A stretch of DNA of 24,000 nucleotides, taken from contig NZ_CP036523.1 of the NCBI RefSeq assembly GCF_008151785.1, positions 1,886,019 through 1,910,018 on the forward strand. The letters run 5' to 3'. The notes beneath the pieces are model-generated. The model did no database searches and was not told the DNA's origin. It saw only the letters and a program-made list of their open reading frames with translations. This DNA comes from Peptacetobacter hiranonis (GTDB lineage Bacteria; Bacillota; Clostridia; Peptostreptococcales; Peptostreptococcaceae). This document shows, piece after piece, positions 2,916 through 11,304 of this stretch. The translations under genes and the position numbers were made by a program. Each line of letters opens with the position of its first letter. The stretch's first letter is position 1.

Positions 2916-3974
2916 TTAATCATCATCTTCTTCATCGTCATCATTATTCTCGCTATTATAATCATTATCGTCACTATCATCGTCATCATCAGTGTTATTT
3001 CTACTTGAATCTTTTTCTTTTATCTCTTCTCTATCGTTGTCGTCATCTTTATAATCATTTACAGAATTATTGTTTTTACTGTTATTTGAGCGTGCTTTAT
3101 TTTTATAATAGTCCTCTATCTCGTCTATATCATCATCGTCATCATCTTCATAACCTTCGCTTCTATCCTCTAGCTCATCTAGTATCTCCTCTCTCAAATA
3201 AGCATATTTACCGTCTTTTAACATTTGGTTAAGCTTATCTATTGTCATACCTTCAATATCGTCCTCTTCTATCATCTGCATCGCTGCATATTCACCCATT
3301 GAAATTTCAGTATTTTTATTCTGCTGTATCTTATTTTTAGCTACTCTTATATACATAATATTTAAACCTTTAAACTTCTGGCTTATCAATTTTTTTATTT
3401 CTTTTTCGTAAGCTATATCGTCAGCACCTTCAAAACAAAGTGCTACCAATACTCTTCCATTTTTATTATTTTTAGAATCTTGTTTTATCTGTTTATAAAG
3501 CTGATCTAAGACTACAGCAAAGTCGTCATCATCTGATATATTCAAGTTTCCGTTTATTAATGATGCAGAATTTACTTTTTTATTTTTATCAAGATTTAGC
3601 TCTAAACTACTTCCATTTTCATCAAATGATACAGTAGCATAAGACTTAGGAGATGATGTATATATCACAGTCCCCACAATAATAGCTATTGTTGCAGCTA
3701 CTGTTACCAATCTTTTATAAACTGTACTCATCTTCTTTTTATTTCTTTCCTTTTTTTCATTGAAATCTATAACATTAGATTTTTCCTGATTTTCTTCCTT
3801 TTCAGTATCTACAATACTACTTTCATCAGCATTATATAAATCTTCTTCTAAGAAATATATCTTGTCACCGACATTCATTCCTTCTTTATTTTTTATTCTT
3901 AAAAATTCTGATTCGTTGGTAACAACTATCGAATATTCGTCCTTAATCTCTATAATAATTCCTTTATATAGCAT
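2916..3974 (-). CDS. rsgI: Anti-sigma-I factor, RsgI-like: N-terminal RsgI domain, one TM helix, extracytoplasmic domain, poly-acidic tail
   Basis: The N-terminus MLYKGIIIEIKDEYSIVVTNESEFLRIKNKEGMNVGDKIYF matches the RsgI N-terminal anti-sigma domain pattern. There is a single TM helix (LVTVAATIAIIVGTVIYT). I place the start at ATG 3974 (SD GGGGAGA upstream) rather than the track start 3998, which overlaps sigI. The gene begins 2 nt after the sigI stop. Confidence 0.7.
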   Translation of the reverse strand: MLYKGIIIEIKDEYSIVVTNESEFLRIKNKEGMNVGDKIYFLEEDLYNADESSIVDTEKEENQEKSNVIDFNEKKERNKKKMSTVYKRLVTVAATIAIIVGTVIYTSSPKSYATVSFDENGSSLELNLDKNKKVNSASLINGNLNISDDDDFAVVLDQLYKQIKQDSKNNKNGRVLVALCFEGADDIAYEKEIKKLISQKFKGLNIMYIRVAKNKIQQNKNTEISMGEYAAMQMIEEDDIEGMTIDKLNQMLKDGKYAYLREEILDELEDRSEGYEDDDDDDIDEIEDYYKNKARSNNSKNNNSVNDYKDDDNDREEIKEKDSSRNNTDDDDDSDDNDYNSENNDDDEEDDD

Positions 3975-3976
3975 AA

Positions 3977-4645
3977 TTATCTCCCCTTCTTTATCCACAG
4001 TTTTAAATTTCTATATCCTCTAAAGAGTATAATTATAACTGTTATAATAAACAACTTGCTCTTTCTAATCACTTTTTCGCTTACATCAAACCTATCAGAC
4101 ATATTTTTTATAGGTAATCTCTTTTTCATAAACATGAAATCTGTTATATCTTTTTCTTTACTAGATTTTTCAGATATGTCTATTGCTTTTTCTCTAGTAT
4201 CTTTATGCTTTGGAGCCTCATTTACAAGTTCTTCAAAACCAAATCCAAATTCCTCTATTTCTTCTTTTAATTGATTTATCTCGTTTATAGTAAACTCTCT
4301 ATTCAAATCCTCTTTGTCGTGATCTTCTAAATTCTCTACTAAGTCAGTTCCCTTTTCTTTATATTCTTCTATAGATTTATTTTTACTGTACTTGTTCTCT
4401 TTTTCAAAGAAATTTTTCAATCTGCTCTCGATTACTAACCTAGAAAAAGCATAAAAATCTCCTTTTTCTTCTTTGTATTTTTCTATAGCTTCTACAAAAG
4501 CTATCATACCTATGCTGTATTCGTCATCATTTTCTATAGACACATACCTTCCTGTGAATTTACTTATACAAGAAATTATAAATGGTATATGTTTTTCTAT
4601 AAATTCTTCGCTTACCCGAATTTCCTTTGTTTTTATATTTTCCAT
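3977..4645 (-). CDS. sigI: RNA polymerase sigma factor, SigI family
   Basis: 222 aa. The sigma-70 region-2-like segment (YSIGMIAFVEAIEKYKEEKGDFYAFSRLVIESRLKNFF) and the SigI-type C-terminal domain (RLPIKNMSDRFDVSEKVIRKSKLFIITVIIIL) are present. It lies immediately upstream of an RsgI-type gene. Confidence 0.75.
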   Translation of the reverse strand: MENIKTKEIRVSEEFIEKHIPFIISCISKFTGRYVSIENDDEYSIGMIAFVEAIEKYKEEKGDFYAFSRLVIESRLKNFFEKENKYSKNKSIEEYKEKGTDLVENLEDHDKEDLNREFTINEINQLKEEIEEFGFGFEELVNEAPKHKDTREKAIDISEKSSKEKDITDFMFMKKRLPIKNMSDRFDVSEKVIRKSKLFIITVIIILFRGYRNLKLWIKKGR

Positions 4646-4917
4646 ATAATCCTACCTTCTCTATTCCAAAAATAATTTCTAAACAAAATATTTTAATAAA
4701 TTTTCTATTTTTCTTTTTATTATATAATACAATAAATTTTCAGAATTTAGGTAAGTTTTATATTACAAATAAAATCAAATTATATAAATTTTTCCATCAA
4801 ATTTTAAATTTTTTTAACATCGCTAAACACTAGTATTTTCAATGTTTATATTTTCTATTTTTATCAATAAAATATATCAAATTTTCTAAAAACTTCAAAA
4901 AATTTTAAATTTTATTG

Positions 4918-4946
4918 TTGACAGAAAAAAATCTCTGAGCTACAAT
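4918..4946 (+). promoter_or_regulatory. Sigma-A type promoter of the ABC importer leader (TTGACA-17 nt-TACAAT)
   Basis: TTGACA at 4918-4923, exactly 17 nt of spacer, TACAAT at 4941-4946. The predicted TSS is near 4953. Confidence 0.65.
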
Positions 4947-4971
4947 AGGAACCATAGAAAATGAACTACAA

Positions 4972-4986
4972 AATTTTCAGAAAAAT
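4972..4986 (+). promoter_or_regulatory. CodY-box-like operator (AATTTTCAGAAAAAT)
   Basis: 14 of 15 matches to the Firmicute CodY consensus AATTTTCWGAAAATT. It sits about 20-35 nt downstream of the predicted TSS of an amino-acid-type importer operon. A weaker box (13/15) lies at 4880-4894, upstream of the -35. Confidence 0.35.
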
Positions 4987-5044
4987 ATTTTAAATTTTTA
5001 ATTATTAAACGAAGAAGAATTATTAAGGAAAAGGAGAGAACGTT

Positions 5045-5095
5045 ATGAAGACTTTAAAGAATAAACAGAGACGATTTTATTATAGCCACTATTAG
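5045..5095 (+). CDS. Leader peptide 1, 16 codons, MKTLKNKQRRFYYSHY (3 Tyr in the last 5 codons)
   Basis: GGAG at 5033-5036 lies exactly 8 nt before ATG 5045; the stop TAG is at 5093-5095. Tyr codons are at 5078-5083 and 5090-5092. The ORF end overlaps an RNA segment that can pair downstream. It is followed by two intrinsic terminators and then the permease gene. Confidence 0.55.
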   Translation: MKTLKNKQRRFYYSHY

Positions 5096-5210
5096 ATCGG
5101 TTTGTATCGATTCGATGCGAATAGGTACAGGCCGTTGGGATTTTTACGACTGTATCTATGTTGGCTAAGTTTCGATTTGTTTGTTTTGTAAAGTTTTTAT
5201 AAAATATATC

Positions 5211-5244
5211 GGCCACATAGAGCGAATACTATGTGGCTTTTTTT
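5211..5244 (+). terminator. Leader 1 intrinsic terminator A
   Basis: GCCACATAG (5212-5220) / CTATGTGGC (5229-5237), an 8-nt loop, then T7. Confidence 0.75.
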
Positions 5245-5282
5245 AATATATTTATATATAAATTATTTTTATATGAATATTT

Positions 5283-5321
5283 AGGCCGCATAGAAATCTA
5301 AACTATGCGGCCTTTATTTTT
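5283..5321 (+). terminator. Leader 1 intrinsic terminator B (tandem)
   Basis: AGGCCGCATAG (5283-5293) / CTATGCGGCCT (5303-5313), a 9-nt loop, then TTATTTTT. Confidence 0.75.
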
Positions 5322-5395
5322 ACAATTTTTTACTTTGAAAGTTTAGTTATTAAAAATAAAAATCAAAAAAGTTTTTAAAAGGAGTGTTTAAATTT

Positions 5396-6235
5396 ATGAT
5401 TTCAGTAGTTACACAAAGTTTAATTTTAGCAATTATGGCGATTGGGGTATACATTACCTTCAAAATACTAGACTTCCCAGATATGACAGCAGATGGAAGT
5501 TACACAATGGGAGCTGCAATATCAGCAGCAGCACTTGCGGGAGGATTAAATCCACTAGTTGGAGTTTTACTTGCAGTAGTTGGAGGAGCTTTAGCAGGAA
5601 TGGTTACAGGTCTTCTTCACATAAAAGTAAAAATCTCAAATCTATTATCAGGAATACTAACAATGGGGATGCTTTACTCAATAAATCTTAGAATAATGGG
5701 AAAATCAAATATACCACTATTCACATTCCCTAATCTATTCAAAGGTAATATACCTCCAGTAGTAATAGCACTTATATTCGTATTAATAGCAAAAATATTA
5801 CTTGATCTATTCTTAAAAACAGGACTTGGATACACATTAAAAGGTGTTGGAGATAATGAACAGATGATAAAATCACTTGGAATAAACATAGGAAATATAA
5901 AAATATTAGGACTTATGATATCAAATGCTTTAATAGCATTATCTGGTGCTCTAATGGCACAGTTCCAAGGATTTGCAGACGTAACAATGGGAATTGGTAC
6001 CCTAGTACTTGGTATAGCATCAATAATAATCGGACTTACATTATTCAAAAAAATCAGAGCTGTAAAAGCTACAACAGCAATACTAATAGGTGCTTTCATC
6101 TACCAGTTCACTATCTACTTCGCACTAAACTTAGGAATGCTTTCTACAGATTTAAAACTTATAAGCTCACTTGTAATCGTTACATTCTTAGCAGTTGGTA
6201 ATCTTCAGTTAAAAAAGAAAGCTGAAAGTAAATAA
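5396..6235 (+). CDS. ABC importer permease (COG4120-type, branched-chain-permease-like fold)
   Basis: Highly hydrophobic multi-TM protein (MISVVTQSLILAIMAIGVYITFKILDFPDMTADGSYTMGAAISAAALAGG...). I prefer ATG 5396 over the track's GTG 5384, because GTG 5384 overlaps the SD AAAGGAG (5378-5384). It is followed by the cognate ATPase and SBP genes. Confidence 0.85.
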   Translation: MISVVTQSLILAIMAIGVYITFKILDFPDMTADGSYTMGAAISAAALAGGLNPLVGVLLAVVGGALAGMVTGLLHIKVKISNLLSGILTMGMLYSINLRIMGKSNIPLFTFPNLFKGNIPPVVIALIFVLIAKILLDLFLKTGLGYTLKGVGDNEQMIKSLGINIGNIKILGLMISNALIALSGALMAQFQGFADVTMGIGTLVLGIASIIIGLTLFKKIRAVKATTAILIGAFIYQFTIYFALNLGMLSTDLKLISSLVIVTFLAVGNLQLKKKAESK

Positions 6236-6343
6236 AAATATAAATAAACAAAAGAAAAAAATATGTAACAAAATAAATCAAATAATAAAATACAGAATAA
6301 TCAATATTTTCAAATATTTATATCACTAAAAGGAGAGATAAAA

Positions 6344-7099
6344 ATGCTACAGCTAAAAAAAATAACTAAAACCTTCCCAAATCCATGTGGAGATGATAAT
6401 ACAGTTTTAAACAAACTTTCAATAGATATACCAGACGGAGAATTTGTATGCATCGTAGGAAGTAATGGTACTGGTAAATCCACTTTATTAAATATAATCT
6501 CTGGATTATTAAAAGAAACATCAGGACAGATTTTATTAGATGGAACAGATATTAGTAATCTTCCTGAACACAAAAAAACTCAGGTAATCAGTAGAGTTTT
6601 CCAAAATCCTAGCTTAGGAACTTGCCCTTCAATGACAGTTAGAGAAAATCTTTCTCTAGCATTAAATAAAGGGAAACTTTTAAATCTTAGAAAATGTCTA
6701 AGACATACAGATGATACACTTGAATCTTTATTAGAAGGTATATCACTTGATTTAAAAAAATTCCTTGATACACAGGTTCAGTTCTTATCTGGTGGACAAA
6801 GACAGTCATTATCGCTAATAATGTCTTGTCTAGCAGATCCAAAGGTACTACTACTTGACGAACATACAGCAGCACTAGATCCAAAAACATCAAATGAAGT
6901 AATAGCTCTTACTAACGACATAGTTAGAAAGAAAAACATAACTACACTTATGGTTACTCATAATCTTAAACACGCTCTAGAATACGGAGATAGACTTGTT
7001 ATGCTACACAAAGGAGAAATTGTAATGGATGTTACTGGCGAAGATAAAAAAAATATGACTGTTGAAGATATTTTAGAAAAATTCGAATACGCTGTATAA
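6344..7099 (+). CDS. ABC importer ATP-binding protein (COG1101-type)
   Basis: Walker A GSNGTGKST, ABC signature LSGGQRQ, Walker B LLLDEHTAALD and H-loop VTHN are all present. The SD AAAGGAGAG precedes the ATG. Confidence 0.9.
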   Translation: MLQLKKITKTFPNPCGDDNTVLNKLSIDIPDGEFVCIVGSNGTGKSTLLNIISGLLKETSGQILLDGTDISNLPEHKKTQVISRVFQNPSLGTCPSMTVRENLSLALNKGKLLNLRKCLRHTDDTLESLLEGISLDLKKFLDTQVQFLSGGQRQSLSLIMSCLADPKVLLLDEHTAALDPKTSNEVIALTNDIVRKKNITTLMVTHNLKHALEYGDRLVMLHKGEIVMDVTGEDKKNMTVEDILEKFEYAV

Positions 7100-7189
7100 C
7101 AAAATTTACCAGACTCAAATATTATTAAAAAACTAAAAAAATACCAACCAAACCAAACTAAAAAATACTAAAAATCGGAGGACACTATT

Positions 7190-8191
7190 ATGAAAATTAA
7201 CAAGAAATTAATCGCACTTATAACTACAGGAATTTTATCAATTTCAATGCTTACTGGCTGTTCAAGTGGAGGTGAATCTACTTCTTCGGACTCAGTTAAG
7301 AAAGTAGGTATAACCCAGCTTGTAGAACATCCATCTCTTGATCAGACTAAAGAAGGATTCATAAAAGCATTAGAAGACAATGGTTATAAAGACGGAGAAA
7401 ATGTAGAAATAGACTATCAAAATGCTCAAAATGATAACCCCACTTCTCAGACAATTGCTAGTAATTTCGTAAATGACAAAAAAGATTTAATCTATGCAAT
7501 ATCTACTCCATCAGCTCAAGCTGCATTCAATGCAACACAAGATATTCCGGTATTATTCACAGCTGTAACAGATCCAGTAGAGGCAGGCCTTGTAAAATCT
7601 TTAGATAACAAAGACGGAGGAAATGTATCAGGTACTTCTGACTTCTTATCAATAGACAAAACTATGTCTTTAGTTGAAAAATTAACTCCACAGGCTAAAA
7701 AAATAGCTGTAATATATTCTACAAGTGAAGTTAATTCTAAAGTTCAGGTTGATTCTTTAAAAGAATATGCTAAAACTAAAGGCTGGGAAGTAATAGAAAA
7801 AGGAATCAGTGCATCTTCAGAAGTAAATCAGGCTATAACTTCAGTTGTAGGAAAAGCAGATGTTCTTTACGTTCCAACAGACAACCTAGTTGTATCTTCA
7901 ATGCCTATAATAGCTAAAGTTGCAAATGAAAATAAATTACCTATAATCGCATCTGATGAAGGTTCTGTAACATCTGGAGCTCTTGCTTGTGGTGGTGTTG
8001 ACTACTATCAGTTAGGATACAAAACTGGTGAAATGGCAGTTCAGATATTAAAAGGTGAAAAACAGCCTTCTGACCTAGCTGTAGAAACTATGGACGAACC
8101 AGTTATAACTATGAATGAAGACACTATGAAAACTTTAGGTATAGAAAAACCAGCTGATATTGACGTAAAACTTGTTAAAACAGAAAATTAG
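7190..8191 (+). CDS. Lipoprotein solute-binding protein 1 of the importer (COG2984 / ABC_sub_bind family)
   Basis: Signal peptide plus lipobox LTGCSSG. The core KKVGITQLVEHPSLDQTKEGF...TPSAQAA...FTAVTDPVEAGLV...GTSD is typical of this family. SD is GGAGGA. Confidence 0.85.
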   Translation: MKINKKLIALITTGILSISMLTGCSSGGESTSSDSVKKVGITQLVEHPSLDQTKEGFIKALEDNGYKDGENVEIDYQNAQNDNPTSQTIASNFVNDKKDLIYAISTPSAQAAFNATQDIPVLFTAVTDPVEAGLVKSLDNKDGGNVSGTSDFLSIDKTMSLVEKLTPQAKKIAVIYSTSEVNSKVQVDSLKEYAKTKGWEVIEKGISASSEVNQAITSVVGKADVLYVPTDNLVVSSMPIIAKVANENKLPIIASDEGSVTSGALACGGVDYYQLGYKTGEMAVQILKGEKQPSDLAVETMDEPVITMNEDTMKTLGIEKPADIDVKLVKTEN

Positions 8192-8255
8192 ATTTTCAAA
8201 ATATAATTAGAGATAATACTAAAAAAACAAAATCTAAAAAATTTTCAAAAAACTA

Positions 8256-8284
8256 TTGACACTGTGTATTTTATATTCTAGAAT
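8256..8284 (+). promoter_or_regulatory. Sigma-A type promoter of leader 2 (TTGACA-17 nt-TAGAAT)
   Basis: TTGACA at 8256-8261, a 17-nt spacer, TAGAAT at 8279-8284. The predicted TSS is near 8291. A CodY-like 13/15 box (AATTTTCAAAAAACT, 8240-8254) abuts the -35. Confidence 0.6.
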
Positions 8285-8371
8285 ATATACAAGTTCAAAA
8301 AATAATTAATTTTCAATTAATTAAAAAAATTGAAATCAATAAACTATAACAAAAGAAAAGGAGAAACTATC

Positions 8372-8416
8372 ATGAAAACTAGACTTTATTATTACTATTA
8401 TAACCTATATATTTAG
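8372..8416 (+). CDS. Leader peptide 2, 14 codons, MKTRLYYYYYNLYI (6 Tyr, 5 of them consecutive)
   Basis: GGAG at 8360-8363 lies exactly 8 nt before ATG 8372, the same spacing as leader 1. The MKT start is also shared. Tyr codons are at 8387-8401 and 8408-8410; the stop TAG is at 8414-8416. Two intrinsic terminators and the SBP2 gene follow. Confidence 0.6.
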   Translation: MKTRLYYYYYNLYI

Positions 8417-8536
8417 AGGCTGTATCTAAACTAGCATAATGTACGGATACAGACCTCGGTAAATACAATCCAGGGCTTTGTGTCTGTGCAGGTTATAATA
8501 ATAAGTCAATTTTATGAAGTTTCATTACTTATATAT

Positions 8537-8575
8537 AAGCCGCATAGATCGAGAATTATGTGGCTTTATTTTTTT
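8537..8575 (+). terminator. Leader 2 intrinsic terminator A
   Basis: AAGCCGCATA (8537-8546) / TATGTGGCTT (8557-8566), including one G-U pair, with a 10-nt loop and a T-rich tail TTTATTTTTTT. Confidence 0.7.
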
Positions 8576-8593
8576 AGTAATATAATGATTAAT

Positions 8594-8633
8594 AAAAGCC
8601 ATGTAGTCTTAAACTATATGGCTTTTATTTTTT
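8594..8633 (+). terminator. Leader 2 intrinsic terminator B (tandem)
   Basis: AAAAGCCATGTAG (8594-8606) / CTATATGGCTTTT (8614-8626), including one G-U pair, with tail TATTTTTT. Confidence 0.7.
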
Positions 8634-8731
8634 CCCTGGAAATCAAATCAAAAACCTATCAAACGACAAATCAAATATAAATTCAAAATCAGAAACTTCA
8701 AATACACTAAAATAATTCGGAGGAAAATAAA

Positions 8732-9721
8732 ATGAAATCAAATAAAAAAATATTATCTTTAATACTATCTTTAACATTAGGAGCAACATTACTTACAGGA
8801 TGCTCAGGTGGTGGAAAATCTTCAGGATCATCTGATGAAGTAAAGAAAATAGGTATAACTCAGCTAGTTGAACATCCAGCACTTGACCAGGCAAGAGAAG
8901 GATTTATAGAAGGACTTAAAGAAAATGGTTTTGTAGAAGGAGAAAACCTAGAAGTAGATTTCCAAAATGCTCAGAACGATAACCCTACTTCTCAGACAAT
9001 AGCTAGCAACTTCGCAAATGATAAAAAAGACTTAATATTTGCAGTATCTACTCCATCTGCTCAGGCTGCATTAAATGCTACTCAGGATATACCAATAGTA
9101 TTCACAGCAGTTACAGATGCTGTTGAAGCTGGACTTGTAAAAAGCAATGAATCATCAGAAAATAATGTAACTGGTACATCTGATGCAATACCAGTAGATA
9201 AATCATTAGAACTAATAAAAAAATTCGTACCAAATGTTAAAACAATCGGTGTTGTTTGCAACACAAGTGAAATAAACTCTAAATTACAGGTAGATACTTT
9301 AAGAAAAGCTGCTGAAAAAGAAGGTATAAAAGTAATAGATAAAGGTGCAACTCAAGCAAATGAAGTTAACCAGGCGGTTGCAGCAGTTGCAAAAGAAGCT
9401 GATGTAATATTCACACCAACAGATAACCTAGTAGCATCTTCAATGCCTATAATAACTAAAGTAGCAACTGAAAATAAGATACCCGTTATAGGTTCTGAAG
9501 AAGGACATGTTGAAAATGGCGCACTTGCTTGTAATGGAATAAACTACAAAAATCTTGGTAAAAAAGCTGGAGAAATGGCAGCTCAGATACTAAAAGGTGA
9601 AAAACAACCTTCTGAAATACCAGTAGCTACTATGGAAGAAACTACAATAATAATAAACAAGTCAACAATGGAAAAACTTGGAATAAAAGATCCTCAAATA
9701 GAAAACGCAATATTTAAATAA
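8732..9721 (+). CDS. Lipoprotein solute-binding protein 2, paralog of SBP1 (COG2984 / ABC_sub_bind family)
   Basis: Lipobox LTGCSGG. It is collinear with SBP1 over the full length, with about two thirds of residues identical by eye, including the block QNAQNDNPTSQTIASNF. It has its own promoter, leader and SD (GGAGGA). Confidence 0.85.
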   Translation: MKSNKKILSLILSLTLGATLLTGCSGGGKSSGSSDEVKKIGITQLVEHPALDQAREGFIEGLKENGFVEGENLEVDFQNAQNDNPTSQTIASNFANDKKDLIFAVSTPSAQAALNATQDIPIVFTAVTDAVEAGLVKSNESSENNVTGTSDAIPVDKSLELIKKFVPNVKTIGVVCNTSEINSKLQVDTLRKAAEKEGIKVIDKGATQANEVNQAVAAVAKEADVIFTPTDNLVASSMPIITKVATENKIPVIGSEEGHVENGALACNGINYKNLGKKAGEMAAQILKGEKQPSEIPVATMEETTIIINKSTMEKLGIKDPQIENAIFK

Positions 9722-9726
9722 AAATA

Positions 9727-9747
9727 AAAAAAGTGCTATCACAGAAT
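9727..9747. terminator. Left arm of an ancestral bidirectional terminator hairpin, now split by the IS
   Basis: AAAAAAGTGCTATCACAGAA(T) is complementary to TTCTATGATAGCACTTTTT at 11216-11234 (14 bp, one mismatch). The A-run and T-run flanks fit termination of both convergent genes. Confidence 0.6.
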
Positions 9748-9753
9748 AAAATG

Positions 9754-9808
9754 GAACCTATAGAATGGACACTTGTAAAAAGGTGTTTCATCTATAGGTT
9801 CTTTTTTT
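9754..9808 (+). terminator. Strong intrinsic terminator inside the IS left end, upstream of the transposase promoter
   Basis: GAACCTATAG (9754-9763) / CTATAGGTTC (9792-9801), with an inner helix GACAC/GTGTT, then T7 (9802-9808). It is immediately followed by TATAAT (9810-9815) and the SD GAGGTGA. Confidence 0.7.
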
Positions 9809-9838
9809 GTATAATTTTAATATAGAGGTGAGTAATTT

Positions 9839-11161
9839 ATGAGTAAAAAACAATTTAGTAAAGAAGAAACATTAGAGCTATCAAAAAATCCATTTGTAAA
9901 GAATGTAAGCTGTAAATCAATAACATATACAAATGAATTTAAAATACATTTCATAACAGAATACAATAAGGGAAAAAATCCAACACAGATATTTAAAGAA
10001 GCAGGTTTTGACACTAACATCATAGGTGCAAAACGTATTAAATGCGCTAGCGAGCGATGGAGAAAGTCATATAAAGAAAATGGTATTTTGGGACTAGATG
10101 ATTCTAGAGTTAATAATTCTGGAAGACCAAGAAAAAGAAAATTAACAGATAAAGAGATAATAGATAAGAAGGATGCTGAAATAGCATATCTTAAAGCAGA
10201 GCTAGAACTAGTAAAAAAGCTAGACTTCGAAGAAAGGCAGGTGATGAATAATAAGCTACCTTCGGTGAAAATATTCAAATTAATTAATGATGTAATAAAT
10301 AAATATTGTTTAAAAAAAATGATAAAACATCTATGTATTGTTGCAGGAGTATCTAGATCTGGATTTTATAACTATTTAAAAAACAAGAATGTAATAAGCA
10401 AACAAGAAGAAAAGGATTTAGAAGCAAAAGAAATAATTCTTAAAGCATATAAGTTCAGAGGATACAAAAAAGGTTCTCGTTCAATAAAAATGATTTTAAA
10501 AAGTAAATTTAATATAATATTTAACAGAAAAAAAATTCAAAGAATAATGAAAAAATATGGAATTAAATGTCCTATTCGCGAGTCAAATCCAGCTAAACGT
10601 ATGGGAAAAGCAAGAAAAGAACATCACACAGTTCCTAATAAATTGAATAGAGAATTTAAACAAGGTATACCAGGAAAAGTACTTTTAACTGATATTACGT
10701 ATATGCCGTACGGCAATGGGAAAACAGCATATTTATCAACTGTAAAAGATTCTTCTACGAATGAAATTTTATCGTATCATTTATCGAAGAATTTAAAAAT
10801 GGATATTGTTATTTCAACTATTAACAATCTCATGTTATCAAATTCAGACAAATTACATAAAGATGCATTTATTCATTCTGATCAAGGAGTTCATTATACA
10901 AGTACTATTTTTCAGAACTTGTTAAAAAAATATAATTTAGGTCAATCTATGTCTAGAAAAGGTAATTGTTGGGACAATGCTCCGCAGGAGTCATTCTTTG
11001 GTCATATGAAAGATGAAATAGATTATAAAAGTTGCAATACATTTGAAGAGTTAAAAAGTTTAATAGATGATTATATGGATTATTATAATAATGATCGTTG
11101 TCAGTGGAATTTAAAACAGCTGACTCCTATTCAATATAGAAGTCAGCTGCTTGCTGCTTAA
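9839..11161 (+). CDS. IS3-family transposase: HTH plus leucine-zipper N-terminal part fused in frame to the DDE (rve) catalytic core
   Basis: 440 aa. The N-terminal HTH region is followed by a coiled coil (EIAYLKAELELVKKL), then a second HTH (LCIVAGVSRSGFYNYLK). The DDE core shows DITYMPY, IHSDQGVHYTS and GNCWDNAPQESFFGHMKDE. Confidence 0.9.
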   Translation: MSKKQFSKEETLELSKNPFVKNVSCKSITYTNEFKIHFITEYNKGKNPTQIFKEAGFDTNIIGAKRIKCASERWRKSYKENGILGLDDSRVNNSGRPRKRKLTDKEIIDKKDAEIAYLKAELELVKKLDFEERQVMNNKLPSVKIFKLINDVINKYCLKKMIKHLCIVAGVSRSGFYNYLKNKNVISKQEEKDLEAKEIILKAYKFRGYKKGSRSIKMILKSKFNIIFNRKKIQRIMKKYGIKCPIRESNPAKRMGKARKEHHTVPNKLNREFKQGIPGKVLLTDITYMPYGNGKTAYLSTVKDSSTNEILSYHLSKNLKMDIVISTINNLMLSNSDKLHKDAFIHSDQGVHYTSTIFQNLLKKYNLGQSMSRKGNCWDNAPQESFFGHMKDEIDYKSCNTFEELKSLIDDYMDYYNNDRCQWNLKQLTPIQYRSQLLAA

Positions 11162-11199
11162 GACTTTTTTATATATGTCCTTGACATAGGGACCATTTT

Positions 11200-11234
11200 A
11201 GAATGTTATTAAACGTTCTATGATAGCACTTTTT
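11200..11234. terminator. Right arm (plus former loop) of the ancestral bidirectional terminator split by the IS
   Basis: AGAAT is the target duplication copy, GTTATTAAACG the former apical region, and TTCTATGATAGCAC plus a T-run the arm. It is complementary to 9733-9746. Confidence 0.6.
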
Positions 11235-11304
11235 ATATATTATAAATATTTATTAGAAAATCATCATAAATATCATACTATACTTATATAGAATAATTTT
11301 ACAC

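Follow-up and report, generated by a model that had tools for sequence, protein, structure and literature searches.

How is the expression of a solitary binding lipoprotein regulated when its gene stands apart from the transporter that it would serve? The question is raised by SBP2, a gene in the window (the whole stretch of Peptacetobacter hiranonis DNA analysed here, 24,000 nucleotides), and by the leader that precedes it, with its tyrosine-rich mini-ORF and its terminators. We consider it very likely that this leader (leader 2) is a ribosome-mediated, tyrosine-sensing transcription attenuator controlling SBP2 as an extra tyrosine-binding lipoprotein, and that the tyrosine uptake protein is most likely made in larger amount only under tyrosine shortage. 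The features of the locus are listed below.

8256-8731, + strand: leader 2 as a whole, upstream of SBP2
8256-8284, + strand: promoter, with -35 TTGACA at 8256-8261, a 17-nt spacer and -10 TAGAAT at 8279-8284 (11 of 12 positions matched)
8358-8363, + strand: Shine-Dalgarno AAGGAG of the mini-ORF, with GGAG at 8360-8363 and an 8-nt spacer to the ATG at 8372
8372-8416, + strand: mini-ORF MKTRLYYYYYNLYI and stop, 14 codons, with the Tyr run at 8387-8401, an extra Tyr at 8408-8410 and the stop TAG at 8414-8416
8399-8406, + strand: 5' strand of helix P0, UAUAACCU, within the ORF, where it covers the final Tyr codon of the run, Asn and part of Leu; partner at 8490-8497
8416-8426, + strand: S1, GAGGCUGUAUC, beginning at the stop codon's final base; partner S2 at 8446-8457
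8440-8490, + strand: hairpin P1, S2 (8440-8459) with S3 (8473-8490); contains the antiterminator strand and resembles P1 of RF04312
8477-8497, + strand: antiterminator strand, S3 plus the tail AGGUUAUA; complementary to the T1 5' arm at 8533-8549
8537-8575, + strand: terminator T1, 11-bp stem at 8537-8566, tail TATTTTTTT, U-tract to 8575; -13.0 kcal/mol
8591-8633, + strand: terminator T2, 17-bp stem at 8591-8629 followed by a U-tract; -20.5 kcal/mol
8634-8639, + strand: CCCTGG motif, adjoining T2 on its 3' side; complementary to CCAGGG at 8470-8475
8719-9721, + strand: SBP2 region, with Shine-Dalgarno GGAGG at 8719-8723 and the SBP2 lipoprotein gene (PF04392) at 8732-9721

Several of these features had been described in a first-pass annotation of the locus, and the promoter, the GGAG placed 8 nt ahead of the ATG and the mini-ORF, in which Tyr accounts for six of the 14 codons, five of them consecutive, are all found as it had described them. 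The strong local hairpin that it had noted at 8416-8457 corresponds to S1:S2 (8416-8426 / 8446-8457; -17.2 kcal/mol). Its two tandem terminators are also present, both with U-tracts, although the second stem begins at 8591 and not at 8594. SBP2 had been called an orphan paralogue, which agrees with its 63% identity to SBP1, the binding protein encoded further upstream, and with the fact that we found no permease or ATPase gene downstream of SBP2. The promoters of leader 2 and of its counterpart before the upstream operon (leader 1) are the top-scoring promoter matches within 4500-10000, and the Peptacetobacter orthologues (L001-L004) have a TTGACA-type promoter at the position equivalent to that of leader 2.

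TAT is a common triplet at 23% G+C, and one could therefore ask whether the leader features arose by chance from the composition of AT-rich intergenic DNA. However, when both strands of the window are examined for short ORFs that combine a Shine-Dalgarno sequence, an ATG and at least two consecutive Tyr codons, only those starting at 5045 and 8372 emerge, and runs of at least four Tyr codons in comparable ORFs occurred in none of 300 simulated 24-kb sequences having the dinucleotide composition of the leaders themselves (22.7% G+C). The initial opinion that composition could hardly explain the Tyr-run ORF is thus borne out. Moreover, the ORF and the helices are kept, with covariation, across genera, so that a coincidence has a probability close to nil and this reading can be regarded as already refuted. 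Relative to shuffled sequences, both leaders also fold far more stably, with z-scores of -7.3 (leader 2) and -9.95 (leader 1).

The second of the two ORFs found in the window belongs to leader 1, which is paralogous to leader 2 and is organized as follows.

4918-5383, + strand: leader 1 as a whole
4918-4946, + strand: promoter
5033-5036, + strand: Shine-Dalgarno sequence
5045-5095, + strand: mini-ORF MKTLKNKQRRFYYSHY and stop
5081-5088 / 5162-5167, + strand: P0
5098-5108 and 5124-5134, + strand: S1 and S2
5211-5238 and 5283-5313, + strand: terminators T1 and T2
5384-6235, 6344-7099 and 7190-8191, + strand: genes under leader 1, encoding a permease, an ATPase and SBP1

The two nucleotide sequences had been considered largely different, a view that does not hold: leaders 1 and 2 can be aligned over their entire structured core, and their differences are mainly compensatory. 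P0 is a clear case, since leader 2 has double compensatory changes that turn the AGCCA/UGGCU of other members into AACCU/AGGUU. These same changes alter the encoded peptide from S-H/Q to N-L, which indicates a constraint on the RNA and not on the peptide.

Leaders 1 and 2 are in fact paralogous members of a conserved family of putative leader-peptide attenuators. We identified about 30 distinct leaders or loci, from about ten genera, in Peptostreptococcaceae and Clostridium, always ahead of ABC-transporter genes, and the binding proteins of the transporters concerned are closely homologous to CD0873 of C. difficile. Each of the approximately 30 leaders has a mini-ORF of 14-21 codons, whose ATG follows a Shine-Dalgarno sequence at a distance of 7-10 nt. 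In most of them the stop codon lies 0-3 nt from S1, with a shift into S1 in three (L010, L016 and L022); in leader 2, the stop and S1 have one base in common. Family members can form two mutually exclusive sets of helices, P0+P1+terminator or S1:S2+antiterminator, and usually have two to four tandem terminators with near-identical arms. Tyr-run mini-ORFs ahead of orthologous transporter genes are present in Peptacetobacter, Asaccharospora, Metaclostridioides, Clostridioides difficile, Terrisporobacter and a Clostridia MAG. Across these genera, Tyr is encoded interchangeably by TAT or TAC, and the run is longer or shorter by whole codons. The run is always immediately upstream of the 5' strand of P0 and overlaps it. 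In both window leaders and in the Tyr leader of C. difficile, it ends 17 nt upstream of S1. On a constant scaffold the codons vary as a cassette: the window leaders and the leader of the CD0873 operon in C. difficile have Tyr runs, and those of Clostridium are Phe-rich. Some members, those of the ...VFNSQFR type, have just two aromatic codons, and in these codon sensing is less obvious.

The comparison of the two leaders and their relatives for compensatory substitutions, which had been proposed as a check, revealed such changes in both registers. In the termination register (P0+P1+T1), 95.0% of alignment cells are paired, compared with 29-48% in controls where the partner strand was slid by 1-3 columns, and 10 pairs are changed on both sides. 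Shuffled alignments gave 4.8 +/- 1.4 such pairs, and none of 500 reached the observed value. RNAalifold independently predicted the P0, P1 and T1 helices. In the read-through register (S1:S2+antiterminator), 97.2% of cells are paired (26-52% in slid controls) with five pairs changed on both sides, and again the observed covariation score was reached by none of 500 shuffles. Within this register, the S1:S2 helix is 96% paired in the family alignment, with three pairs changed on both sides, and the helix between the antiterminator and the T1 5' arm is 98% paired across 18 leaders. Together with the conservation across genera, the compensatory changes in both helix sets support the earlier argument for selection on function.

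These data suggest how the switch may operate; we infer that the ORF is translated and that the ribosome stalls, and likewise in which direction and with what kinetics the leader switches and that the decision is relayed to T2. Transcription would start at the promoter at 8256-8284, and would probably also arrive by read-through from the upstream operon, and a ribosome would then translate the 14-codon leader. When charged Tyr-tRNA is ample, the ribosome would reach the stop codon and cover S1; S2 would then pair with S3 to form P1, the 5' strand of P0 would pair with the tail AGGUUAUA that follows P1 (and doubles as the 3' strand of P0), the antiterminator would be fully sequestered, T1 and T2 would form, and transcription would end. 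When charged Tyr-tRNA is scarce, the ribosome would stall in the Tyr run, covering the 5' strand of P0 and leaving S1 exposed, so that S1:S2 would form first during transcription. S3 and the tail would thereby be free to take the T1 5' arm, and RNA polymerase would continue into SBP2.

In leader 2, the P0 duplex has a predicted energy of -8.7 kcal/mol, and P0 and P1 together reach -35.0 kcal/mol. P1 alone, at -23.5 kcal/mol, clearly exceeds S1:S2 in stability, and the duplex of the antiterminator with the T1 5' arm has -15.5 kcal/mol. Minimum-energy folds masked to mimic ribosome footprints favoured P1+T1 under every footprint. Since these folds always give the terminator state, the switch does not follow from thermodynamics by itself, and the read-through state must be a kinetic, co-transcriptional trap.

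T2, at -20.5 kcal/mol, would block induced read-through unless it were co-regulated with T1. The core of its arms is identical to that of T1, and a duplex of the T2 5' arm with the T1 3' arm has a predicted -14.7 kcal/mol; the freed T1 3' arm may pair with the near-identical T2 5' arm and hand the decision to the second terminator. When consecutive 3' arms were compared for positions at which they differ, they proved identical at 222 of 248 positions and relay-compatible at 242 of 248; of 10 informative positions, only four keep dual pairing. Such a terminator relay is compatible with the sequences, which do not specifically support it.

The gene under control fits a tyrosine signal. In C. difficile, the lipoprotein CD0873 serves in tyrosine import, acts as a colonisation factor, is considered a vaccine candidate and is linked to p-cresol production. 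SBP2 is highly similar to this protein (PDB 6HNI; E = 1e-116), as is SBP1 (E = 3e-125), and has Ser-Glu at the positions of CD0873 Ala262-Glu263. Judged by sequence similarity, SBP2 is a CD0873-like homologue of tyrosine-binding proteins, and CD0873 itself has been shown to bind tyrosine (PMC6816091). The C. difficile operon encoding CD0873 has its own leader, MNTLLNNKKYYYYYSHYF, of the YYYYY type. The residues at Glu263 and Tyr279 did not separate binding proteins linked to Tyr-type leaders from those linked to Phe-type leaders, as every leader-linked binding protein has Glu or Asp at the first position and Tyr at the second.

Is the ribosome really the sensor? The leaders share part of their architecture with the trpB motif (RF04312, SRC-39-1), an orphan RNA and strong riboswitch candidate of Firmicutes found mostly upstream of amino-acid-type ABC transporters (Narunsky et al., 2024, NAR, PMC11109978). 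In both, the 5' UTR contains two hairpins, of which the first, P1, includes the antiterminator in its right shoulder and the second is a terminator, and both have AGAUAC...GUAUCU.UG..GGCUAU and terminator arms of the form CC.C.UAG/CUA.G.GG; the Rfam model, however, includes no upstream ORF. Leader 2 matches RF04312 with 37.5 bits (E = 0.0096; 8440-8575), leader 1 with 32.9 bits (E = 0.074; 5118-5248) and the C. difficile orthologue with 44.3 bits. Four such matches spanning P1 and T1 lie between 32.9 and 44.3 bits, compared with a curated gathering score of 59, a threshold that no leader passes among 22 loci. P1 might thus bind an amino-acid-related ligand and control the terminator directly, the mini-ORF being incidental. 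We regard this as improbable, given that every invariant column of the 18-sequence alignment sits within a competing helix, and that the P1 loop varies in sequence and length and has no conserved unpaired pocket; moreover, all members have an ORF with a Shine-Dalgarno sequence and an ATG, whose cassette follows the pathway (Tyr, Phe, His) while the scaffold stays constant, and the authors of the trpB motif could not themselves exclude a classical attenuator (PMC11109978). A sensor of another kind would be the nascent peptide, detecting free tyrosine in the exit tunnel and arresting the ribosome at or near the stop, as in TnaC. The C-terminal S-Q/H-F/Y is indeed conserved across genera, the stop adjoins the regulatory helix, and an arrested terminating ribosome would likewise set the register of the RNA. 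Yet the C-terminus is accounted for by the RNA: UAUAGCCA pairs with UGGCUAUA, the Ser of the conserved tail is always encoded by AGC, and the N-L of leader 2 arose via compensatory changes, whereas the length and N-terminal sequence of the peptide vary freely. A ribosome held at the stop would also cover S1 and promote termination, and so repression by tyrosine with no need for a Tyr run, which is the feature most amplified in the clade; sensing by the peptide is therefore about as unlikely as a riboswitch.

Control by a TRAP-like protein or by uncharged tRNA in the manner of a T-box, with an irrelevant ORF, has some precedent in the same PF04392 transporter family and follows the same logic of an RNA attenuator responding to aromatic supply. 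The homologous Trp transporter TrpX of Streptococcus suis is reported to be under a T-box (PMC9382623), and TRAP-like arrays of (G/U)AG repeats precede the transporter in four loci (L033, L035, L036 and L038). In those cases the sensor is uncharged tRNA or TRAP, whereas for the window leaders we propose the translating ribosome. Here, the T-box model (RF00230) has no match at its gathering threshold, nor even at E <= 10 in a permissive search of 4500-9000, and leader 2 contains 10 (G/U)AG triplets scattered over 447 nt with no regular spacing, unlike a TRAP site, for which we took about 9-11 triplets spaced 2-3 nt apart. The conserved nucleotides are all explained by RNA-RNA pairing, and this possibility appears even more remote than the two preceding ones. 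At gathering thresholds, Rfam gave no trpB, T-box or leader family at the transporter leaders of the window and 22 related loci. Hits in this set were confined to c-di-GMP riboswitches, which are unrelated, one tRNA and one T-box that lies on the other strand.

Sensing by a translating ribosome, which we favour, is a textbook mechanism. Like trpL, pheL (the leader of pheA) and hisL, the window leaders have a short ORF rich in cognate codons, a choice between overlapping helices that would be made by the position of the ribosome, and a terminator before the structural genes. The his leader of Salmonella has a six-segment scheme, A:B/C:D/E:F versus B:C/D:E, and leader 2 resembles hisL in that the register shifts over several segments. 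The window leaders nevertheless have no sequence or structural homology with these three and matched no Rfam leader family, and they differ by the use of tyrosine, by a P0 5' strand located inside the ORF, and by two to four tandem terminators with identical arms; unlike in classical attenuators, an untranslated leader may also default differently. No Tyr leader is known to us from E. coli. In the literature searched, we found neither a Tyr version of leader-peptide attenuation nor a description of the 5' UTR of the CD0873 operon.

The closest relatives are the His leader-peptide attenuators predicted for his operons of Peptostreptococcaceae and Lutispora (Ashniev et al., 2022, BMC Genomics, PMC9413887, Additional file 6B). 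They occur in the same bacterial family, have the same proposed mechanism, and their scaffold aligns with that of the window leaders over its full length: the regulatory codons are followed immediately by S1 (GGGWTTGTA), then by P1 (CATAGATACAAGCCC...GGGNTTGTAKCTATG) and, behind a short tail, by the terminator. The His attenuators, however, have a His run where the window leaders have Tyr codons and no His run, the tail/P0 sequence is AUGAUGGG instead of the UGGCUAUA or AGGUUAUA of Tyr leaders, and the target is a biosynthetic operon and not a transporter or an orphan binding protein. Since the same scaffold carries His codons before his operons, codon identity tracks operon function. A Tyr version, the P0 helix and tandem terminators with the same arms are absent from that study (Ashniev et al., 2022, PMC9413887).

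If our reading is correct, tyrosine would join the amino acids sensed by leader-peptide attenuation, and one clostridial RNA scaffold would have been re-targeted to His, Tyr and Phe by the swapping of a few codons. It would also give the CD0873 operon of C. difficile a concrete regulatory mechanism that can be tested, under which the supply of tyrosine would govern how strongly this antigen is expressed, and it poses the problem of the joint relief of several tandem terminators whose arms are identical. A wider proposal can be made only tentatively, and we hold it to be somewhat less probable than its opposite: the leaders would be multi-register "domino" attenuators (S1:S2, then S3:T1 5' arm, then T1 3' arm:T2 5' arm, and onward) that switch off two to four tandem terminators at once, and the Tyr, Phe and His leaders and the more than 900 trpB-motif (RF04312) RNAs would constitute a single modular ribosome-sensing scaffold, with specificity set by exchange of the codon cassette and the trpB motif not being a riboswitch. 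This would offer a specific candidate explanation for the orphan trpB motif. When true members of this motif were sought in metagenomes with the pattern AGATACGACN{8,38}TCTNTNNNGGC, the matches listed were all chance ones, and viral contigs, scanned twice, yielded nothing or chance hits located in coding regions.

Finally, the CCCTGG motif that follows T2 is kept in all Peptacetobacter SBP2 leaders.

Leader 2 (8256-8731) and leader 1 (4918-5383) stand ahead of genes for two homologues of the C. difficile binding protein CD0873, in the following arrangement:

2916-4645, minus strand: SigI-like sigma factor (PF04542) and RsgI-type anti-sigma factor (PF12791), divergent, upstream of leader 1
5384-6235: permease gene
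6344-7099: ATPase gene
7190-8191: binding-protein gene SBP1 (PF04392)
8732-9721: binding-protein gene SBP2 (PF04392)
9839-11161, plus strand: ORF of an IS3-family transposase (HTH and rve domains), within ~9730-11265

SBP1 and SBP2 are 63% identical to each other, and SBP2 shares 94-98% identity with Peptacetobacter proteins. For both, the nearest solved structure is CD0873 (PDB 6HNI/6HNJ/6HNK; E = 3e-125 and 1e-116), which was crystallized with bound tyrosine and shows a thermal-shift response specific to this amino acid (PMC6816091). The equivalents of CD0873 Glu263 and Tyr279 are Glu and Tyr in SBP2, and Asp and Tyr in SBP1. Synteny between the window and two other Peptacetobacter loci (L001, L002) extends as far as position 9732, 11 nt past the SBP2 stop. 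Together with the transposase, which lies between inverted repeats (AAAAGTGCTATCA and TGATAGCACTTTT), this indicates that the region 3' of SBP2 is an insertion or rearrangement in this strain.

All elements that the first-pass annotation had assigned to leader 2 were recovered: a TTGACA-N17-TAGAAT promoter at 8256-8284 (11 of 12 positions matching), a GGAG Shine-Dalgarno (SD) at 8360-8363 separated by 8 nt from the ATG at 8372, a mini-ORF at 8372-8416 encoding MKTRLYYYYYNLYI*, a local hairpin pairing 8416-8426 with 8446-8457 (-17.2 kcal/mol), and two tandem terminators, 8537-8566 and 8591-8629, both with a U-tract after the stem. Both leaders fold far better than shuffled sequence (leader 1, z = -9.95; leader 2, z = -7.3). 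The argument that the Tyr run goes beyond base composition also holds: a run of at least four Tyr was absent from all 300 24-kb sequences simulated with the AT-rich dinucleotide composition of the leaders themselves. Over the whole window and both strands, leaders 1 and 2 are the only short ORFs with SD and ATG that contain at least two consecutive Tyr codons.

One genome per species was scanned, yielding 78 loci with binding-protein relatives, and SD-preceded Tyr-run mini-ORFs were found to recur in several genera on the coding strand upstream of transporter genes. A search with the conserved sequence of helix P1 enlarged the family to about 30 distinct leaders, including further types.

Leader peptides of the family
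Peptacetobacter: MKTRLYYYYYNLYI, MKNKFYYYYYNLYI, MKTTALLNSKTYYYYYSLYI
Asaccharospora: METLLNNKKYYYYSHYC
Metaclostridioides: MITLLNNNKYYYYSQYL
C. difficile: MNTLLNNKKYYYYYSHYF (six Tyr in one strain)
Terrisporobacter MAG: MNTLNTNNLRSFYYYYQIR
Clostridia MAG: MKAFANNQVNYIYYYSQFR
Clostridium species, Phe-rich type: MNTLINKQARFSFYSQFI
C. difficile, second system: MKTLLNKQVRFFSSQFS
Further type: ...VFNSQFR

The binding protein encoded by the operon behind the C. difficile Tyr-run leader has 98% identity to CD0873. Every member has an SD, an ATG and 14-21 codons, and in nearly all of them the stop lies 0-3 nt ahead of the conserved strand GGGUUUGUA (S1); in three loci (L010, L016, L022) the usual stop is lost and translation extends to a stop inside S1. 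The number of Tyr codons varies in frame between six and five among C. difficile strains (L028 2370-2429), and in one Peptacetobacter strain a Cys codon (TGT) interrupts the run (L001 5605-5649). In Asaccharospora irregularis, an orphan binding-protein gene without adjacent permease or ATPase gene has its own leader, MNTLINKQARFSFYSQFI (L027 5687-6987), so the arrangement of leader plus orphan binding protein is not unique to the window.

The same RNA is also found with another codon. Ahead of the his operons of C. difficile, Intestinibacter, Terrisporobacter, Acetoanaerobium and Lutispora, Ashniev et al. 2022 (PMC9413887) had predicted attenuators with His leader peptides. Aligned against the Tyr and Phe leaders, those from Terrisporobacter and Lutispora (Additional file 6 of PMC9413887) matched in S1, P1, tail and terminator, and had a His run where the others have the Tyr run. 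The scaffold is thus modular, with codon identity tracking the regulated pathway, and this is the strongest argument for ribosome sensing.

Eighteen diverse leaders were aligned with MAFFT (A3), and the result supports two mutually exclusive predicted registers, one for termination and one for read-through. The termination register consists of P0, in which the ORF-internal UAUAGCCA pairs with UGGCUAUA just 3' of P1, of P1 itself (S2 with S3), and of the first terminator (T1). It is paired in 95.0% of cells, against 29-48% in slid controls, and has 10 pairs changed on both sides versus 4.8 +/- 1.4 in shuffles (0/500); RNAalifold independently returned the same three helices. The read-through register, S1:S2 plus S3/tail with the T1 5' arm, is paired in 97.2% of cells (slid controls 26-52%), with five pairs changed on both sides and a covariation score reached by none of 500 shuffles. 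Invariant columns all fall inside helices of the two registers, and the P1 loop varies in both sequence and length. The conserved peptide C-terminus (S-Q/H-F/Y), whose Ser codon is always AGC, reflects RNA constraint. Leader 2 forms P0 from UAUAACCU / AGGUUAUA where UAUAGCCA / UGGCUAUA is usual, two compensatory changes that convert the peptide S-H to N-L, and P. hominis has the intermediate form UAUAGCCU / AGGUUAUA. The alignment of the two leaders that had been suggested as a check shows them to be paralogues differing by compensatory substitutions.

In leader 1, leader 2 and the C. difficile leader, the P0 5' strand opens with the final Tyr codon of the run, which lies 17 nt upstream of S1. 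A ribosome waiting there for Tyr-tRNA would cover P0-5' and leave S1 exposed, so that S1:S2 could form once S2 is transcribed; this would leave S3 and the tail available for pairing with the T1 5' arm (duplex energies of -14.8 kcal/mol for leader 1 and -15.5 for leader 2). A ribosome at the stop would instead cover S1, allowing P1, then T1 and the second terminator (T2), to form (leader 2: P1 -23.5 kcal/mol, P1+P0 -35.0, T1 -13.0, T2 -20.5). Masked minimum-energy folds preferred the terminator state in every case, and the switch must therefore be kinetic. Kinetic switching is accepted for classical attenuators. Family conservation and covariation in both registers support the initial interpretation, and leader 2 is very probably a Tyr-responsive leader-peptide attenuator; we are less confident of the detailed helix choreography, which is an inferred mechanism.

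Control of other kinds is excluded in the window, where Rfam searches gave no T-box match and TRAP-type repeats are absent. The RNA half of the leaders resembles the trpB motif (RF04312), an orphan 'strong riboswitch candidate' whose more than 900 members mostly precede an amino-acid-type ABC transporter; those who described it were unable to rule out a classical attenuator (PMC11109978). The two window leaders scored 37.5 and 32.9 bits and the C. difficile one 44.3 bits, under the threshold of 59, which none of the 22 loci tested reached, so the window elements are not members by the curated criterion. Neither a Tyr leader peptide nor a leader of the CD0873 operon is described in the literature searched. 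This kind of attenuator is already known; the member proposed here would be specific for tyrosine and would act on a transporter or an orphan binding protein. The mechanism is a textbook one, here extended to a clinically studied C. difficile antigen operon, with added interest from the modular scaffold, a terminator relay that may exist and a potential connection to an orphan riboswitch candidate.

Concerning the relay, most family members carry 2-4 tandem terminators whose arms share the core GCCRCAYRG / CYRTGYGGC, with variable loops and spacers. Between successive terminators, 222 of 248 positions of the 3' arms agree, so that a 3' arm is able to pair with the 5' arm of the terminator after it (-14.7 and -16.9 kcal/mol for the window leaders), and a simple hairpin search found such pairing in two further loci (L005, L006). 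It would pass a single decision along the chain. Dual pairing is kept at only 4 of the 10 positions able to discriminate a relay, which we regard as possible from the sequences.

CCCTGG at 8634-8639 adjoins the T2 3' end and can pair with CCAGGG at 8470-8475, on the 3' side of P1; it is kept in all Peptacetobacter SBP2-type leaders, also without T2 (L003) or with an unrelated T2 (L004). A semi-conserved GTTTTCAT / AAGTTTCAT (8518-8530, with equivalents in other leaders) stands out in the spacer that joins the P1 tail to T1 and is variable elsewhere; it may be a pause site or small hairpin.

Two neighbouring tyrosine-type transporter operons of C. difficile (L008) have a Phe-rich (RFFSSQFS, 328-381) and a Tyr-rich leader (KKYYYYYSHYF, 3929-3985). 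Bradshaw et al. proposed that both C. difficile binding proteins take tyrosine; the differing leaders suggest that the two systems respond to different aromatic amino acids. Upstream of sbp-perm-atp operons in Alkaliphilus, Hathewaya and Clostridium, four loci (L033 at ~5650-5990, L035, L036, L038) contain ~9-11 (G/T)AG triplets spaced by 2-3 nt, e.g. TTGTAGAATCGTAGTATTGTAGGATTTGTAGGAGAT, with a terminator after them; the arrays resemble TRAP (MtrB) binding attenuators before relatives of the same transporter. In Fusobacterium sp. MFO224 (L071, ~5700-5950), an SD-preceded ORF, MYSSNILIENKKWWRC..., with two adjacent Trp codons and then a strong terminator, lies upstream of a PF04392 binding protein with Met at the CD0873 Glu263 position, and is possibly a Trp leader with a scaffold unrelated to this one. 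We also observed tandem c-di-GMP-I riboswitches (L031 2652-2932) and, on the opposite strand, a T-box (L030 1708-1968, minus strand), both no more than a few kb away from a transporter leader.
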